DNA of 64,000 nucleotides from Malacoraja senta (lineage: Eukaryota): contig CM075988.1 of assembly GCA_038087875.1 (NCBI GenBank), positions 16,556,001 to 16,620,000 on the forward strand. The letters run 5' to 3'. Made by a program: the position numbers and the translations under genes. Under the pieces are notes generated by a model. It saw nothing but the letters and a program-made list of their open reading frames with translations. It had not been told where the DNA came from and ran no database searches. Of this stretch, positions 20,473 to 57,952 are shown in pieces. The first letter of the stretch is position 1. Each line of letters starts with the position of its first letter.

Positions 20473-20750
20473 AGTGGGCACAACCTCAGAATAAAAGGAC
20501 GTACGTTTAGAATGCAGGTGGGGAGGAATTTCTGCAGCCAAAGAATGGCGAATCTGTGCTATTCATTGCTACAGATAGTTGTGGAGATCAATAACTTGGG
20601 TAATTTTTTTAAGCCAAGACTGCCAGGTTCCTGATTAGTAAGGGTGATAAAGGTTATCGGGGGAAAGGAAGGAGAATGGGATTCATAGGGAGATATAGAT
20701 CAGCCGTGATCGAATGGCATAGCAGCCTCAATGGGCCAAATGGCCTAATT
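20473..20750 (+). mobile_element. Old CR1 3' fragment, the DIRS target (continues at 28735-28757)
   Basis: GHNLRIKGRTFR-like coding remnant followed by a 3' UTR cut at tggcctaatt. Confidence 0.8.
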
Positions 20751-20774
20751 TTACTTCGGAGTCACGTGAGTGAC

Positions 20775-20809
20775 TACGTGAAGAACCCCGCCAGTGCGCC
20801 TGCGCGTCA
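20775..20809 (+). repeat. DIRS left inverted terminal repeat core
   Basis: tacgtgaagaaccccgccagtgcgcctgcgcgtca is the exact reverse complement of 28626-28660 (35 bp). Confidence 0.95.
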
Positions 20810-20959
20810 TTACGTCAGACGCCTTGACGCAAACGGATGTGAGGAGCAGAGCTCCTCTATTGGATTTGTAGTTTTTTAACTACAAGGTAAGTAGAAACTG
20901 TTTTCATGTTTTCCATGTCCGTTTACTGTGGGTCTGTGGGAATTTTTTCCACAGACGCC

Positions 20960-22216
20960 ATGGAAAAAACGGGCAGGGAGAAGAGGCAAGCGACTCAGCC
21001 GACAGAAAGTCGGGAGGCTGCGGGTAGCGACCAACCGCCTCTAACCCCGATACAGTCGCCAGCGGTGAGCATAGCGACTGTGGACCTGGGGCTGATTAAA
21101 ACACAGTCAGCGCCTGTCAGGCGAAAGGCGAAGTTTAAATCCCGACAGCCCACGGAGGAGGAGTCCCAGGCCATGGAAGTAGCTCCAGGGCTAGATACTG
21201 CTTTTCAGTGTATTGCCCAAATGGAAAGCCTTTTACATAGGCTGTTGGAGCAAAGTACACTCAGGGAGGAGTGTACTGAAATCCAAGCTGCTGGAAGCAG
21301 CTCAACAGCTCCTGGTACAGGGCTGATGGAATGCACCCTCGGGGATGAGGAGCATGCTATGGGTCATGAGAGTTCTGACCCCGACTCTGACGGTGAGGCT
21401 ATACAAGGTGAAGAACGGCAGCTGGCAGATATTCCACCACTGGCAGTACGATTTGCTGCCCCGTCAGGGTCAGGAGAACCATTAGGAGAAGAACTGGCCT
21501 CCTTAATAAATTACTTGGTTTCCCATCAGCTGGAACAGCAGGAGATGGATGAGACTGCAAGAAAGCATGAGACCCCAAGTAACTGTGTGTTGCTGAAAGC
21601 ACCAGCAGTGAATCAAATCATCTGGAATCAGTTGAGTATGACTATGAGAACTCAAGAATTAAAATTGCAGAGAATATTAAAGCTGCTGGGTTCTGGAATA
21701 ACTGCTTTTGCCAGAATAGTGGATAAAAGCCAAGAGTTGACGGAGTTGCATCAGGAAGCACTGGGATTGCTATGCAGCACCCACTTCGAGATCAATTGTC
21801 TGAGGAAAGGTGCTATACGGCCTACTATGAATCCGAAATTCGCAGCACTCTGCAAACCAAGTAATATACAATTACCCAACTTGCTCTTTGGAGAGGATCT
21901 CGGGAGACGTATTAAAGAGTTGGAAGATGAAGCGAAAACAGGATTGATGAAAACATCAATGGTTGTAAAGTCTGTAAAGAGGAAGTATCCTTTCAGACGT
22001 CATACGGATCCTGGACCAGGACCAAGTCGCTCATCAACGCAGGGACGTAGTTGGCGGCCTGCAGCGGGAGCAAGAACCGGTGGGGGGTGCTTCCGGGAGA
22101 ACCCAGGGATCTCAGGGTACTCAAATGACTCAAGAGGTAGGTGGCCCTGGTTCTCATGGGAACATACTAACCGGATTAAGTCCAAAAGTTGGTGGCAGAT
22201 TACATCTCTTCTATAA
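20960..22216 (+). CDS. DIRS ORF1, gag-like protein (open)
   Basis: Long uninterrupted ORF at the ORF1 position. ATG 20960 has a gccATGg Kozak context. The 3' end overlaps the start of ORF2. Confidence 0.8.
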   Translation: MEKTGREKRQATQPTESREAAGSDQPPLTPIQSPAVSIATVDLGLIKTQSAPVRRKAKFKSRQPTEEESQAMEVAPGLDTAFQCIAQMESLLHRLLEQSTLREECTEIQAAGSSSTAPGTGLMECTLGDEEHAMGHESSDPDSDGEAIQGEERQLADIPPLAVRFAAPSGSGEPLGEELASLINYLVSHQLEQQEMDETARKHETPSNCVLLKAPAVNQIIWNQLSMTMRTQELKLQRILKLLGSGITAFARIVDKSQELTELHQEALGLLCSTHFEINCLRKGAIRPTMNPKFAALCKPSNIQLPNLLFGEDLGRRIKELEDEAKTGLMKTSMVVKSVKRKYPFRRHTDPGPGPSRSSTQGRSWRPAAGARTGGGCFRENPGISGYSNDSRGRWPWFSWEHTNRIKSKSWWQITSLL

Positions 22217-24051
22217 CAATTGGAAGAAGATTACTTCAGATGTGGTAATTCTGAATAGTATACAAGGATTTCGAATTGAATTCAATCCAAATTATGATTT
22301 GCCTGTCCAGCATGTTCCTAGCAGAACTCTCCACTTTGCACAACTGCACAGCTGCACTTGAAACCCTGTATATAAAAGGTGTTATTGAAGAATCAGTCTA
22401 CCAAATTCACCAATTTGTGTCAAATGTATTCCCTCGATCAAAAAAGGATGGAGGATGTAGGATTATTCTAGACTTGACAAGTCTGAATCCTTTTGTTCAA
22501 TTTAGACATTTTAAAATGGAGACATTTGTGACTGCCAAACAACTTATTTCAGAAGCATGTTATATGGCAACTATAGATTTAAAAGATGCATATTATTCAG
22601 TGACTGTTCACTCGGAAGATAGGAAGTATCTTAAATTTAAATGGATGAACCAGTTATGGCAGTTCAAAGCCCTGCCTAATGGGTTAACGTCCGCTCCCAG
22701 AATATTCACAAAATTGTTAAAACCAATTCTGGGGTTGCTGAGAAGACAGGGGCATGTACTAATGGCATACTTGGATGATGTCTTGATTATAGGAAGGACA
22801 AAACAGTCAACAGAAGCATCTGTTGCAGTTGTGAAATCAACTTTTGAAAATTTGGGGGTTCTAATTCATCCACAGAAATCAAGGTTAACACCATGTACCT
22901 CAATTGATTATTTGGGGTTCACAATTGATTCAGTCCAAATGAAAATTACTTTGCCCAGAGAAAAAAGGGTGGAGTTGATTAAAGATTGCAGTAATCTGCT
23001 AAACGAGCAAAAACCCTCAATCAGACAGGTGGCTCGAGTACTGGGAAAATTAGTAGCAGCATTCCCAGCAGTCCAATACGGACCATTACATTATCAACAG
23101 CTGCAGAGAGTTAAAGAACAGGCACTGAGAATGCATGTTGGTCATTTTGATAGAACCATGCAACTAACAACAAATGCTGTTTCTGATCTGCAGTGGTGGA
23201 TTCTACATGTCTCAAGCAGTTCCAGCAAAGTGCTGATTGAACAACCTTCCATGATATTACAAACTGATGCCAGTGCACTAGGATGGGGTGCAACTGACTT
23301 AGCATCTAGCTGCGGAGGCAGATGGAATCAGGAAGAGTCATTGTTACTGCAGACATGGGGAATTAACTATTTGGAGCTTTTAGGATGTTTCTATGGACTC
23401 CAAGCTTACTGTTCTAACAGAACTAATAAGCATGTTCAAGTTCAAATTGATAACACAACAGCAGTTGCCTATATTAATCATATGGGTGGAATCAAGTCGG
23501 TGTCATGTGACAAAATGGCTAATTAAATTTGGTCTTGGTGCATTGAAAAGAACATTTGGATTTCAGCCATCCATCTACCAGGTAGAATGAATACGATAGC
23601 AGACACCAGGTCATGAAAGTTCCATGATAATAAAGAATGGATGTTGAATCGAGAGGTATTCAATGACATAGTAATCAGATTTGGAATACCAGACATCGAC
23701 TTGTTCGCATCTAGACTGAATCATCAGCTATCGAGATATGTCTCATGGGAACCAGATCCAGGAGCAGTGGCGATTGATGCTTTCTCGCTACATTGGGGTG
23801 GTATGTTTTCATATATATTTCCACCTTTCTGCCTCATAAGCCAATGTTTGCTTAAAATCAGGCAAGATGCTGCTTCAGGGGTATTAGTAGTACCAGATTG
23901 GCCTACGCAGCCATGGTATCCGTTGATATTAGAATTAACAACACAAAAGTTCATGAAAGTCCCAAAAATAAATAATCTATTGCTGCACCCTGTAACAGGG
24001 GAACAACATCCATTATATGATTGTTTGGATTTGTTGATTTGCAGGTTTTAA
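22125..24051 (+). pseudogene. DIRS ORF2: reverse transcriptase, RNase H and adenine-methyltransferase-like domain (disrupted)
   Basis: VGGRL..F...W N-terminus; RT motifs KKDGGCRIILDL, IDLKDAY, LPNGLTSAPRIF and YLDD; RNase H motifs TDAS..GWGA, INYLELL and DNTTAVAYIN; MT-like IDLFAS...YIFPPF...PDWPTQPWYP. One frameshift near 22335-22360 and in-frame stops at 23524 (TAA) and 23614 (TGA). Confidence 0.93.
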
Positions 24052-25008
24052 GAAGGCCTTTTCTGGGGTGAGGACTGTCTGAGCGTACTGTGGACATGCT
24101 TACGGCAGCCTGGAGGAAGAGCATTCAAAAACAGTACCTTTCTTATATTAAGAAATGGGAAGCGTTCTGTGTACAAATGAATGTGGAATATAGTACTGCA
24201 GATATTTCAATTGTTTTAGAATTTCTGTCAAAACATTATTATGATGAAGGCTTGAGTTATAGTGCAATTAATTCAGCCAGAAGTGCATTGTCCTCATATT
24301 TGGTTCTGGATTCAGAAAGAAACCCAATTGGGTCACACCCACTTGTTTCCAGACTAATGAAAGGAATCTTTAATTCCAAACCTCCGAAACCTAGGTACAT
24401 GACAATCTGGGATGTAAGTGTGGTACTGAAACTACTTCGTGAATGGTCACCAAGTGTGTCTTTACCTTTGGCCAAGCTCAGTATGAAAGTAGTCATGCTT
24501 ATGGCATTAGTGACAGCACAACGAGTGCAAACACTTGGAAAATTACAAATAGACAGTATGGAAGTAACTGAAGACAAGGTTACATTCTATATCTATGACC
24601 TACTAAAGCAAAGTAGGCCAGGTGTGACAGGATTTAAAATTGTGCTAGCAACATATCCAAATGATCCTTGTCTCTGTGTTAAGACATATTTGTTACAATA
24701 CATTGAGATCACAAAGAATTTGAGAAATACGGAAATTGGGTTGTTGATCACACACAAGAAACCACACAAGAGAGTTTCAGTACAGACCATTTCCTGATGG
24801 ATAAAAGAAGTCTTAACAGCTGCTGGTATTAACACTGATGTTTTTACGTCTCACTCGACTAGGGCAACAGCAATGTCGGTGGCCAGGGCGAAAGACGTCC
24901 CCGTCGACCATATCCTCACAGCTGCCGGGTGGTCCAATGAGTTGATGTTTCAACATTTTTACCATCGGCCTATTGTTAATGCGGGATTGTTTGCAGAAAC
25001 TATTTTAA
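24045..25008 (+). pseudogene. DIRS ORF3: tyrosine recombinase (disrupted)
   Basis: Reading through TGA stops at 24069 and 24795 gives the catalytic set AQRV...SHSTR...AGW...FY. The C-terminus abuts the CR1 insertion. Confidence 0.92.
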
Positions 25009-28000
25009 ACTCAAATAGAGAATGCTATTAGACAGTGTGTGAGGCAGGAGGCAGAGAAGGAAAGCACTCAGACCCAACATGTAGGGGTGAAAGAAGAAAA
25101 CAATAATAAACAGAGAATAAGAGGTGGTGGGGTTCTTAAATGGGTGAGCAGAGAAACAGAGGGGTGTAAAATGCGGGCGGAAGCAATAGGTAGCAAGGTG
25201 AAAGGTAAAAGTGGCAGGCAGACAAATTCAGGGCAAAAATCAAAAAGAGCCACTTTTCAACATAATTGTATAAGGGGTAAGAGCGTTGTAAAAACAAGCC
25301 TGAAGGCTTTGTGTCTCAATGCAAGGAGCATTCGTAATAAGGTGGATGAGTTGAACGTGCAGATAGCAATTAATGATTATGATATAGTTGGGATCACGGA
25401 GACATGGCTCCAAGGTGACCAAGGCTGGGAGCTGAACATCCAGGGATATTCAATATTCAGGAGGGATAGAGAGAAAGGAAAAGGAGGTGGGGTAGCGTTG
25501 CTGGTTAGAGAGGAGATTAACGCAGTGGAAAGGAAGGACATTAGCTTGGAGGATGTGGAATCGGTATGGGTAGAGCTGCGAAACACTAAGGGGCAGAAAA
25601 CGCTGGTGGGCGTTGTGTACAGGCCACCTAGCAGTAGTAGTGAAGTTGGGGATGGCATCAAACAGGAAATTAGAAATGCGTGCAACAAAGGCAAAACAGT
25701 TATAATGGGTGACTTCAATCTACATATAGATTGGGTGAATCAAATTGGCAGGGGTGCTGAGGAAGAGGATTTCTTGGAATGTATGAGGGATAGTTATCTA
25801 AACCAACATGTAGAGGAACCAACGAGAGAGCAGGCTATTCTAGACTGGGTATTGAGTAATGAGGAAGGGTTAGTTAGCAGACTTGTTGTGCGTGCCCCCT
25901 TGGGCAAGAGTGATCATAATATGGTTGAGTTCTTCATTAGGATGGAGAGTGACATTGTTAATTCAGAAACAACAGTTCTGAACTTAAAGAAAGGTAACTT
26001 TGAGGGTATGAGATGTGAATTGGCCAAGATTGACTGGCAATTAGTTCTAAAAGGGTTGACGGTGGATATGCAATGGAAGGCATTTAAAGACTGCATGGAT
26101 GAACTACAAAAATTGTTCATCCCAGTTTGGCAAAAGAATAAATCAAGGAAGGTAGTGCATCCGTGGATAACAAGGGAAATCAGGGATAGTATCAAAGCAA
26201 AAGATGATGCGTACAAATTAGCTAGAAAAAGCAGCATACCAGAGGACTGGGAGAAATTCAGAGACCAGCAGAGGAGGACAAAGGGCTTAATTAGGAAAGG
26301 GAAAATAGATTATGAAAGGAAACTGGCAGGGAACATAAAAACTGACTGCAAAAGTTTTTATAGATATGTGAAGAGAAAGAGATTAGTTAAATCAAATGTA
26401 GGTCCCTTGCAGTCAGAAACAGGTGAATTGATCATGGGGAACAAGGATATGGCAGACCAATTGAATAACTACTTTGGTTCCGTCTTCACTAAGGAAGACA
26501 TAAATAATCTGCCGGAAATAGCAGGGGGCCGCGGGTCAAAGGAGATGGAGGAACTGAGTGAAATCCAGGTTAGTCGGGAAGTGGTGTTGGGTAAATTGAA
26601 TGGATTAAAGGCCGATAAATCACCAGGGCCAGATAGGCTGCATCCCAGAGTACTTAAGGAAGTAGCTCCAGAAATAGTGGATGCATTAGTGATAATTTTT
26701 CAAAACTCTTTAGATTCTGGAGTAGTTCCTGAGGATTGGAGGGTAGCAAACGTAACCCCACTTTTTAAGAAGGGAGGGAGAGAGAAAACGGGGAATTACA
26801 GACCAGTTAGTCTAACATCGGTAGTGGGGAAACTGCTAGAGTCAGTTATTAAAGATGGGATAGCAGCACATTTGGAAAGTGGTGAAATCATTGGACAAAG
26901 TCAGCATGGATTTACGAAAGGTAAATCGTGTCTGACGAATCTTATAGAATTTTTCGAGGATGTAACTAGTAGAGTGGATAGGGGAGAACCAGTGGATGTG
27001 TTGTATCTGGACTTTCAGAAGGCTTTCGACAAGGTACCACATAAGAGATTAGGATACAAACTTAAATCACACGGTATTGGGGGTTCAGTATTGATGTGGA
27101 TAGAGAACTGGCTGGCAAACAGGAAGCAAAGAGTAGGAGTAAACGGGTCCTTTTCACAATGGCAGGCAGTGACTAGTGGGGTACCGCAAGGCTCAGTGCT
27201 GGGACCCCAGCTATTTACAATTTATATTAATGATCTGGACGAGGGAATTGAAAGCAACATCTCCAAGTTTGCGGATGACACTAAGCTGGGGGGCAGTGTT
27301 AGCTGTGAGGAGGATGCTAGGAGACTGCAAGGTGACTTGGATAGGCTGGGTGAGGGGGCAAATGTTTGGCAGATGCAGTATAATGTGGATAAATGTGAGG
27401 TTATCCACTTTGGTAGCAAAAACGGGAAGGCAGACTATTATCTAAATGGTGGCCGATTAGGAAATGGGGAGATGCAGCGAGACCTGGGTGTCATGGTACA
27501 CCAGTCATTGAAAGTAGGCATGCAGGTGCAGCAGGCAGTGAAGAAAGCGAATGGTATGTTGGCCTTCATAGCAAGAGGATTTGAGTATAGGAGCAGCGAG
27601 GTTCTACTGCAGTTGTACAGGGTCTTGGTGAGACCACACCTGGAGTATTGCGTACAGTTTTGGTCTCCAAATCTGAGGAAGGACATTATAGCCATAGAGG
27701 GAGTGCAGAGAAGGTTCACCAGACTGATTCCTGGGATGTCAGGACTTTCATATGAAGAAAGACTGGATAGACTTGGCTTATACTCGCTAGAATTTAGGAG
27801 ATTGAGAGGGGATCTTATAGAAACGTACAAGATTCTTATGGGGTTGGACAGGCTAGATGCAGGAAGATTGTTCCCGATGTTGGGGAAGTCCAGGACAAGG
27901 GGTCACAGCTTAAGGATAAGGGGGAAATCCTTTAGGACCGAGATGAGGAAAAACTTTTTCACACAGAGAGTGGTGAATCTCTGGAACTCTCTGCCACAGC

Positions 28001-28206
28001 GGGTAGTTGAGGCCAGTTCATTGGCTATATTTAAGAAGGAATTAGATGTGGCCCTTGTGGCTAAAGGGATCAGGGGGTATGGAGAGAAGGCAGGTACGGG
28101 ATACTGAGTTGGATGATCAGCCATGATCGTATTGAATGGCGGTGCAGGCTCGAAGGGCCGAATGGCCTACTCCTGCACCTATTTTCTATGTATCTATGTA
28201 TCTATG
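25009..28206 (+). mobile_element. CR1-clade LINE, 5'-truncated, nested in the DIRS element
   Basis: Intact ORF2, short 3' UTR and (TATCTATG)n tail. The 5' boundary is approximate. Confidence 0.92.
25039..28107 (+). CDS. CR1 ORF2: APE endonuclease plus reverse transcriptase (intact frame; first ATG at 25171)
   Basis: APE motifs LNARSIRNK, ITETWL, GGGVAL, YRPP, MGDFN and SDH. RT motifs QHGF, YLDFQKAFD, GVPQGSVLGP and FADD. No stops in 1022 codons. Confidence 0.95.
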   Translation: MRQEAEKESTQTQHVGVKEENNNKQRIRGGGVLKWVSRETEGCKMRAEAIGSKVKGKSGRQTNSGQKSKRATFQHNCIRGKSVVKTSLKALCLNARSIRNKVDELNVQIAINDYDIVGITETWLQGDQGWELNIQGYSIFRRDREKGKGGGVALLVREEINAVERKDISLEDVESVWVELRNTKGQKTLVGVVYRPPSSSSEVGDGIKQEIRNACNKGKTVIMGDFNLHIDWVNQIGRGAEEEDFLECMRDSYLNQHVEEPTREQAILDWVLSNEEGLVSRLVVRAPLGKSDHNMVEFFIRMESDIVNSETTVLNLKKGNFEGMRCELAKIDWQLVLKGLTVDMQWKAFKDCMDELQKLFIPVWQKNKSRKVVHPWITREIRDSIKAKDDAYKLARKSSIPEDWEKFRDQQRRTKGLIRKGKIDYERKLAGNIKTDCKSFYRYVKRKRLVKSNVGPLQSETGELIMGNKDMADQLNNYFGSVFTKEDINNLPEIAGGRGSKEMEELSEIQVSREVVLGKLNGLKADKSPGPDRLHPRVLKEVAPEIVDALVIIFQNSLDSGVVPEDWRVANVTPLFKKGGREKTGNYRPVSLTSVVGKLLESVIKDGIAAHLESGEIIGQSQHGFTKGKSCLTNLIEFFEDVTSRVDRGEPVDVLYLDFQKAFDKVPHKRLGYKLKSHGIGGSVLMWIENWLANRKQRVGVNGSFSQWQAVTSGVPQGSVLGPQLFTIYINDLDEGIESNISKFADDTKLGGSVSCEEDARRLQGDLDRLGEGANVWQMQYNVDKCEVIHFGSKNGKADYYLNGGRLGNGEMQRDLGVMVHQSLKVGMQVQQAVKKANGMLAFIARGFEYRSSEVLLQLYRVLVRPHLEYCVQFWSPNLRKDIIAIEGVQRRFTRLIPGMSGLSYEERLDRLGLYSLEFRRLRGDLIETYKILMGLDRLDAGRLFPMLGKSRTRGHSLRIRGKSFRTEMRKNFFTQRVVNLWNSLPQRVVEASSLAIFKKELDVALVAKGIRGYGEKAGTGY

Positions 28207-28388
28207 TAAGTTCTGTGTAAATTCCTCTGGTTTAAAGGGGATCTGATTAATTTCATTATTAAAATGAATTACTGCATTTGTGGTACAAATGTTATTATGA
28301 ATGCATGATTGATTATTCTCGTTCCGAGTCAATCAATGCAGCGAGAAGCCGGGATTGATCTACGGCATGAAATCACAAAGCTTTAAAA

Positions 28389-28502
28389 TCTTCACATAGT
28401 CACTCACGTGACTCCGAAGTAAAATAGTAAGATTAAACGAGAACTTACCTAAGTTTGAAGTTTGATCTTTATTTTATGAGGAGTTACGTAGGTGATTACG
28501 TG
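28389..28502 (+). repeat. DIRS internal complementary region (ICR)
   Basis: 28389-28422 is the reverse complement of 20751-20784 (one mismatch). 28423-28502 is the exact reverse complement of 28655-28734 (80 bp). Confidence 0.95.
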
Positions 28503-28625
28503 CCCGCCACGACCCTACCCTCTATCATAAAGGTCAGATGGAAGTTCTTGTATTACTCGTTTTAGTATGAGACTATATTACTTCGGTTGTTGTTTTTTGT
28601 GATTTCACACCGCTGCTTTGAAGAT

Positions 28626-28734
28626 TGACGCGCAGGCGCACTGGCGGGGTTCTTCACGTAATCACCTACGTAACTCCTCATAAAATAAAGATCAAACTTC
28701 AAACTTAGGTAAGTTCTCGTTTAATCTTACTATT
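28626..28734 (+). repeat. DIRS right ITR plus right extension
   Basis: 28626-28660 is inverted relative to the left ITR, and 28655-28734 is inverted relative to the ICR. Confidence 0.95.
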
Positions 28735-57410: not shown

Positions 57411-57952
57411 TCCAAATCTGAGGAAGGACATTATAGCCATAGAGGGAGTGCAGAGAAGGTTCACCAGACTGATTCCTGGGATGTCAGGACTTTCATATGA
57501 AGAAAGACTGGATAGACTTGGCTTATACTCGCTAGAATTTAGGAGATTGAGAGGGGATCTTATAGAAACGTACAAAATTCTTATGGGGTTGGACAGGCTA
57601 GATGCAGGAAGATTGTTCCCGATGTTGGGGAAGTCCAGGACAAGGGGTCACAGCTTAAGGATAAGGGGGAAATCCTTTAGGACCGAGATGAGGAAAAACT
57701 TTTTCACACAGAGAGTGGTGAATCTCTGGAACTCTCTGCCACAGAGGGTAGTTGAGGCCAGTTCATTGGCTATATTTAAGAGGGAGTTAGATGTGGCCCT
57801 TGTGGCTAAGGGGATCAGGGGTATGGAGAGAAGGCAGGTACGGGATACTGAGTTGGATGATCAGCCATGATCATATTGAATGGCGGTGCAGGCTCGAAGG
57901 GCCGAATGGCCTACTCCTGCACCTATTTTCTATGTTTCTATGTATCTATGTA
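57411..57952 (+). mobile_element. CR1 3' fragment of the same subfamily as 25009-28206
   Basis: Aligns by eye with 27666-28206 with only a handful of substitutions and one 1-bp indel. Confidence 0.92.

Follow-up and report, generated by a model that had tools for sequence, protein, structure and literature searches.

The 64,000-nt stretch of Malacoraja senta contig CM075988.1 analysed here (assembly GCA_038087875.1, positions 16,556,001 to 16,620,000, forward strand; hereafter the window) carries at 20748-28734 a DIRS1-like retrotransposon in a broken copy, interrupted by an insertion of the CR1 type. From the layout of this copy and of its relatives we conclude that the active ancestors of the copy probably made their tyrosine recombinase (YR) by splicing out pol (22137-24044), with the short linker in front of the donor being entered from Gag by a -1 frameshift. 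The feature is real and belongs to an element of known type, for which the predicted route to YR has good comparative support.

In this model, most ribosomes would translate Gag and then terminate, and a minority would slip by -1 near the end of gag into a short linker in the pol frame. On unspliced RNA the slipped ribosomes would continue into reverse transcriptase (RT), RNase H and methyltransferase, yielding Gag-Pol, and on spliced RNA they would continue into the recombinase, yielding Gag-YR. Splicing would decide which enzyme is made, the Gag moiety would tether either of them to the particle, and copying of the full element would be possible from unspliced RNA only.

Splice-like sites around pol and entry into the linker

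An earlier note on this DNA had proposed the intron from a donor-like GAG/GTAGGT (GT at 22137) and a TTTGCAG/GTT acceptor (AG at 24043-24044), each at a codon boundary, and coordinates and frame check bear this out, as they do for ATG 22125; the span is 1908 nt. Positions 22125, 24045 and 24096 all lie in one reading frame, and in the YR frame a stop indeed lies at 24018 and the earliest ATG at 24096, as had been stated. The pair combines donor and acceptor consensus with matching phase, as expected for a GT-AG intron, and the acceptor overlies the Cys-Arg of pol, two codons ahead of the pol stop. The coordinates of all features are given in Table 1.

Table 1 Features of the DIRS1-like copy in the window. 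Ranks were computed over 20749-25008 (234 GT, 322 AG).
Feature	Position	Strand	Remarks
Left inverted terminal repeat	20748..20809	+	element starts with ATT; 88.7% complementary to 28626-28686
Predicted 68-nt leader intron	20887..20954	+	donor rank 1/234 GT; acceptor rank 7/322 AG
gag open reading frame (ORF) as read in this copy	20960..22216	+	1746 homologues; 3' end probably damaged near 22071
ATG and three codons preceding the donor	22125..22136	+	probably closes a linker in the pol frame, less likely a conserved start
Predicted splice donor GAG/GTAGGT	22137..22142	+	phase 0 in pol frame; rank 2/234 GT
Predicted 1908-nt intron	22137..24044	+	contains coding sequence for RT and for putative RNase H and methyltransferase, disrupted here
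Predicted acceptor, pyrimidine-rich tract and CAG	24025..24044	+	phase 0 in YR frame; rank 1/322 AG
YR coding region	24045..25008	+	230 homologues (PF00589 in many); interrupted here by stops 24069 and 24795
Endonuclease-RT LINE (presumably CR1-type)	25009..28208	+	inserted immediately before the YR stop; open 1032-codon endonuclease-RT frame
Internal complementary region (ICR)	28389..28502	+	two halves share AAT 28423-28425
Right inverted terminal repeat and extension	28626..28734	+	element finishes in ATT

For comparison, genome and viral contigs were scanned, which gave 15 DIRS loci, apparently eukaryote DNA inside bacterial bins. A metagenome scan gave two loci (one degraded, one distant), two viral scans gave one and none, respectively, and a pattern scan aimed at the clade of the window returned eight loci, three of them DIRS and none of them close. 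In all ten loci with an intact gag-pol junction, the top-scoring GT within 45 nt past the gag stop lies in phase 0 of pol, a window size that was picked after inspection of the data. The donor score exceeded those of all control windows in seven of the ten (p 0.003), with p values of 0.05, 0.13 and 0.21 for the remaining three; for the ten, Fisher gives 8e-12. Two loci fetched later, L016 and L017, show the same phase-0 donor (p=0.003), which brings the total to 12/12 intact closer relatives. Loci in which the junction could not be located (L011) or is absent (L001, L014, L015, L018, L021), as well as the distant L002 with its other layout, did not enter this count. The linker surrounding the donor varies in length and sequence and is otherwise unalignable. 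At the protein level, 33 of 49 pol N-termini fit a donor (V[SG] in 16 and a starting M[SG] in 16, both in agreement with GTRRGT, and QVN in one), the called Met of the M[SG] cases possibly being a GTG codon.

The near-intact elements among these loci (L005-L007, L009, L010, L012, L013, L016 and L017) are contigs of 4-7 kb in bins labelled Sedimenticola, and these bins are likely contaminated by DNA of a eukaryotic host.

The same relatives point to the way in which the linker would be reached. The pol frame is -1 relative to gag in all 12 intact relatives, the first ten as well as L016 and L017, and a slippery heptamer lies inside the gag/pol overlap in every one of them. Counted with a relaxed pattern over the first ten relatives, heptamer matches amount to 11 in 417 codons of overlap versus 16 in 3811 codons elsewhere, and in five of these ten the pol frame opens no more than 6 nt from the heptamer. 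A motif of the type xFL occurs in the final 70 residues of gag in 76 of 82 relatives of the window gag, as compared to about 10% expected, 52 times as PFLG, and four loci encode it as T-TTT-TTG. Folding energies downstream of the slippery sites range from -3.8 to -24.6, values that have no shuffled controls behind them.

That one start codon, ATG 22125, would serve both RT and YR had been the second part of the earlier proposal; the statement that ORF2 begins there turned out to be an interpretation and not an observation. A form of this explanation, in which the same intron is used and both enzymes are initiated at ATG 22125 by stop-restart at the ATGA overlap or on a separate mRNA, seems quite unlikely to us. 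The ATG lies three codons ahead of the donor, in frame with it, and overlaps the TGA of the frame used by the gag of relatives; called starts lie one to four codons ahead of the V[SG] motif in P0122, P0145, P0203 and P0232, in the case of P0122, the closest relative, one codon ahead of the same E-V-G-G motif, and the window copy is without a slippery site. Against it, none of the first ten intact relatives has a Met in the pol frame ahead of the donor, and in L016 and L017, where the heptamer reads A-AAA-AAC, Mets occur solely upstream of the heptamer. In the close relative P0121 the called start is the donor codon itself. Moreover, 19 gag ATGs precede ATG 22125, its context is weak, and no strong acceptor lies shortly upstream of it (none among the top 25). 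Of the original claim, the intron that joins the pol frame to YR is supported by its conservation in relatives, and the shared start is weakly supported.

As regards the window copy, the gag-tail profile matches only up to about 22065, which is about where the xFL motif would come next, and in the gag frame of relatives the window reads AAA-TGA (Lys-stop), which creates ATG 22125. A lesion near 22071 would be the simplest reading of this gag end. It is unproven, since the gag ORF as read has a typical length, ending 110 codons past the LFG motif, the median of the relatives, and since P0122 has its called start just ahead of the donor.

Two candidate acceptor positions in related elements

In a sister group of the window's clade, the candidate acceptor is found at an FPPF-S motif of pol, about 265 nt upstream of the GLS motif of YR and in YR phase 0. 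The Ser of this motif is coded by AGY in 14 of the 14 loci having Ser there (background 24-39%). No stop occurs in the YR frame across the 88-90 codons after this AG in any of ten loci, as compared to 7-12% stops upstream, and in L004 and L008 the AG is itself part of the last stop, so that the YR frame opens precisely there. The first Met after the acceptor follows only at 175 codons in L006, inside YR, and L010 has none for 92 codons; L016 has a lesion further on. Four database gene models (P0246, P0251, P0252 and P0253) fuse upstream sequence to YR at the FPPF-S site, in P0246 a full Gag. A search for longer proteins (33 matches; 8000 candidates scored) gave no Gag-YR protein that is demonstrably transcript-derived.

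In a quick tree of 73 of 75 proteins, the 15 loci and the window, from which both motifs had been trimmed off, the window falls in a clade of 65 rows (Shimodaira-Hasegawa-like approximate likelihood ratio test 98). At the FPPF-S site this clade has Cys in 53, Ser in eight and Asn in four rows, and Ser is present outside the clade in 20/21. Conversely, the Arg over the window AG is invariant in the clade (65/65) and is found in 6/20 outside. This clade pattern is what a moved acceptor predicts. A Fisher test of FPPF-x against Cys-Arg (58/59 vs 10/16, p 2e-4; set of 120 proteins cut to 102, 27 dropped) was given up as a measure of significance because the tree showed one shift. Seven related recombinases (P0004, P0011, P0014, P0019, P0118, P0070 and P0085) have LQ or FQ at the acceptor site, compatible with CAG, and P0011 is without Met at this spot. 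Both acceptor positions have equal pol codon phase. The pol of the closest relatives P0121, P0122, P0132 and P0177 terminates at the equivalent of window 24045-24051 as R-F-stop.

We see about even chances for a broader statement, according to which a broad set of DIRS1-like elements, those of animals included, would use a gag-end -1 frameshift and a pol-spanning intron to make Gag, Gag-Pol and Gag-recombinase, the large clade of the window having moved its acceptor by about 240 nt downstream to the Cys-Arg of pol and dropped the extension. If true, this model of two switches would explain the open overlap of about 90 codons between YR and the methyltransferase.

A start of YR at a codon of its own, which would be ATG 24096 or an ATG at the position of 24039 in other copies, is an alternative explanation. 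RNA from the leader donor 20887 or from an internal promoter would then be translated, and donor 22137 would serve otherwise, for example for a short Gag mRNA. No donor in the element scores higher than that of the leader, many invertebrate recombinases have a Met at the equivalent of 24039 and many one near 24096, L021 carries its own ATG, and the base state at 24039 in other copies lies outside the difference rows listed. We nevertheless regard this explanation as unlikely, since a start at 24096 loses residues whose conservation continues past the pol stop and for which helices are predicted, since a usable Met is missing in L006, and since it is left unexplained why the post-gag donor matches in phase. 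In addition, P0011 reads LQV with no Met, and called starts lie solely downstream in 10 of the 12 closest YR matches. In the AlphaFold model of the intact relative P0004 (predicted local distance difference test 93), helices span residues 3-11 and 16-23, and the position of Met-24096 is residue 21. This model matches Cre with a Z of 22.0 and a root mean square deviation of 3.5 over 295 aligned residues, starting at about residue 7 versus Cre residue 22. Judging from the model, a start at 24096 would lose most of the first Cre-like helix, or what we take to be that helix in this comparison.

Several observations speak against a spliced, Gag-fused recombinase. Regarding the window copy, the region 21801-22300 holds no slippery heptamer, the xFL motif is missing, pol is at +1 to gag, and the typical length of the gag ORF as read would fit an undamaged end. 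The splice ranks come from a rough, untrained matrix, and the splicing is a prediction from sequence. Among the relatives, the distant L019 was tested for a post-gag donor and has none, nor does it have a slippery heptamer, and its YR frame is long open. Nine of the 12 donor loci stem from two bins with one sample label and therefore probably from one host; the families of these nine lie far apart on the tree. In eight of ten sister-group loci a Met 23-70 codons past the acceptor could start YR alone. The junctions of the four gene models are database annotations. The conservation of the AG in the window's clade rests on proteins, and Arg can also be coded by CGN; moreover, the clade pattern represents a single clade-level shift and not independent events. 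Finally, two further loci do not fit, L021 with Cys-His at the acceptor site and its own ATG, and L018 with a long open YR frame.

A further reading would make the motifs (Val-Gly/Ser, Cys-Arg, Phe-Ser) by-products of protein constraint, with YR being reached in the absence of splicing, for instance by a pol-to-YR frameshift. Such a frameshift has been proposed for the YR of Ngaro elements, according to a passage of PMC13003380 that quotes Poulter and Butler 2015, and the inheritance of codon classes (Ser AGY, for example) makes the counts non-independent. This reading is improbable in our view: the donor sits in a linker of variable length that is otherwise unalignable, pol terminates two codons past the acceptor, and the open YR frame begins at the AG or 7-39 codons from it. 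We continue to favour a pol-spanning intron with a linker entered by frameshifting; the two splice-like sites with their phase, the anatomy of the element and the same layout in relatives are established, and it is the splicing, the frameshifting and the products that we infer.

State of the copy and of its family

The window copy is dead, and its interest lies in the family-wide mechanism. The earlier note had passed over its lesions, namely TGA 24069 and a second TGA 24795 in the YR frame, a frameshift or deletion near 22340-22360 and stops 23524 and 23614 in pol, and the CR1 insertion. Accordingly, of the spliced product that had been predicted, MTQE-VLRRPFLG(R)GLSERTVDML, the frame holds, and the residue given as (R) is TGA 24069, a stop in this copy, so that a spliced RNA from it would terminate after 12 codons.

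The ends of the element are those of the DIRS1 type. The ICR half 28389-28425 pairs with 20748-20784 at 97% and the half 28423-28502 with 28655-28734 at 100%, and other copies lose similarity upstream of 20748, where aligned contigs have loose ends. No split direct repeats of the Ngaro/PAT type were found, the terminal matches being inverted. The RT in ORF2 is recognised by Pfam (RVT_1, E 2e-23) and has 1915 homologues. For RNase H, Pfam gave no match, and the corresponding region is conserved in the protein alignment; for the methyltransferase, the scores of Dam (E 0.009) and of PCIF1_WW (E 0.001) fall short of the Pfam cut-off, as do those of the window's own YR pieces.

The predicted leader intron would end five bases upstream of the gag ATG and would remove the upstream ATGs 20906 and 20915. 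It agrees with an acceptor carried by DIRS gag that was inferred in a passage of PMC4495291; among nine invertebrate-type loci checked, a leader intron is not general. The DIRS sequence picks up again near 28209, which matches a loose end of sequencing run X3. The inserted long interspersed nuclear element (LINE), with its open frame, is probably young, and its segment 27666-27965 is 100% identical to 57411-57710 of the window.

The family is of high copy number, with 25,762, 22,408 and 109 contigs aligned from three sequencing runs of unrecorded kind, the high copy being seen in two runs of one study. None of the 40 of 557 difference rows listed hits 22125-22142, 24039-24045 or 24069, and the predicted junction is absent among the 15 of 62 contig joints listed, both being uninformative either way. 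Leucoraja erinacea (skate) is the sole vertebrate among the near-length YR matches listed and also the source of the closest gag match. Its RefSeq gene LOC129705380 (two isoforms; P0274 / P0428) is based on a related DIRS gag whose C-terminus differs from those of the other gags; it is possibly an exonised gag.

Relation to known elements and significance

Retroviruses combine a gag-pol -1 frameshift with a spliced env, which has its own start and whose donor lies before gag. The DIRS layout shares with them a slippery heptamer at a motif of the Phe-Leu-Gly type and a predicted pol-spanning intron opening a third ORF. It differs in that the donor follows gag and that the third ORF encodes the integrating enzyme, a predicted Gag fusion.

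Within its own group, the window's element agrees with the DIRS1-like elements described in the part of Piednoel et al. 2011 (PMC3266345) that we cite, which have inverted termini, ATT ends and an ICR whose two parts overlap by a 3-bp junction (AAT), and which carry gag, RT-RNase H-methyltransferase and YR in overlapping frames, RNase H and methyltransferase being putative in the window's element. Whereas the published accounts, as far as covered, give no route for the translation of YR, the conserved donor/acceptor pair and the slippery site of gag suggest one here. Ngaro elements resemble it in a YR ORF that has no obvious start and overlaps the end of pol, as far as the quoted passage goes, but they have split direct repeats, no methyltransferase and the proposed pol-to-YR frameshift, while in the window's element YR would replace pol via splicing. 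In plant Ty1/Copia elements, too, a conserved alternative splice determines which proteins a retroelement makes (Oberlin et al. 2017, PMC5580714); it yields a Gag-only RNA there, and one enzyme set would be exchanged for another here.

The literature search gave no account of a spliced YR or of a slippery site in DIRS; Poulter and Goodwin 2005 and Poulter and Butler 2015 lay outside its reach, so that an earlier mention is possible. The searched text of PMC3266345, PMC3783388 and PMC9210276 contains neither 'splic' nor 'intron', and Additional File 3 of PMC3266345, outside the search, could bear on the point. Passages of PMC7192593, PMC9341512, bioRxiv 2026.05.21.726589, PMC8547959, PMC9940879, PMC6681497 and PMC5633606 were also covered.

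The DIRS recombinase often has no usable start codon, and its translation is unexplained in the literature passages searched. The conserved post-gag donor, the defined acceptor and the slippery site lead to exact predictions, which are checkable in existing RNA-seq data. If true, the proposed route would correct annotations that split or misjoin DIRS ORFs, would account for the frame overlaps that characterise the DIRS group, and would predict a recombinase that is tethered to Gag.

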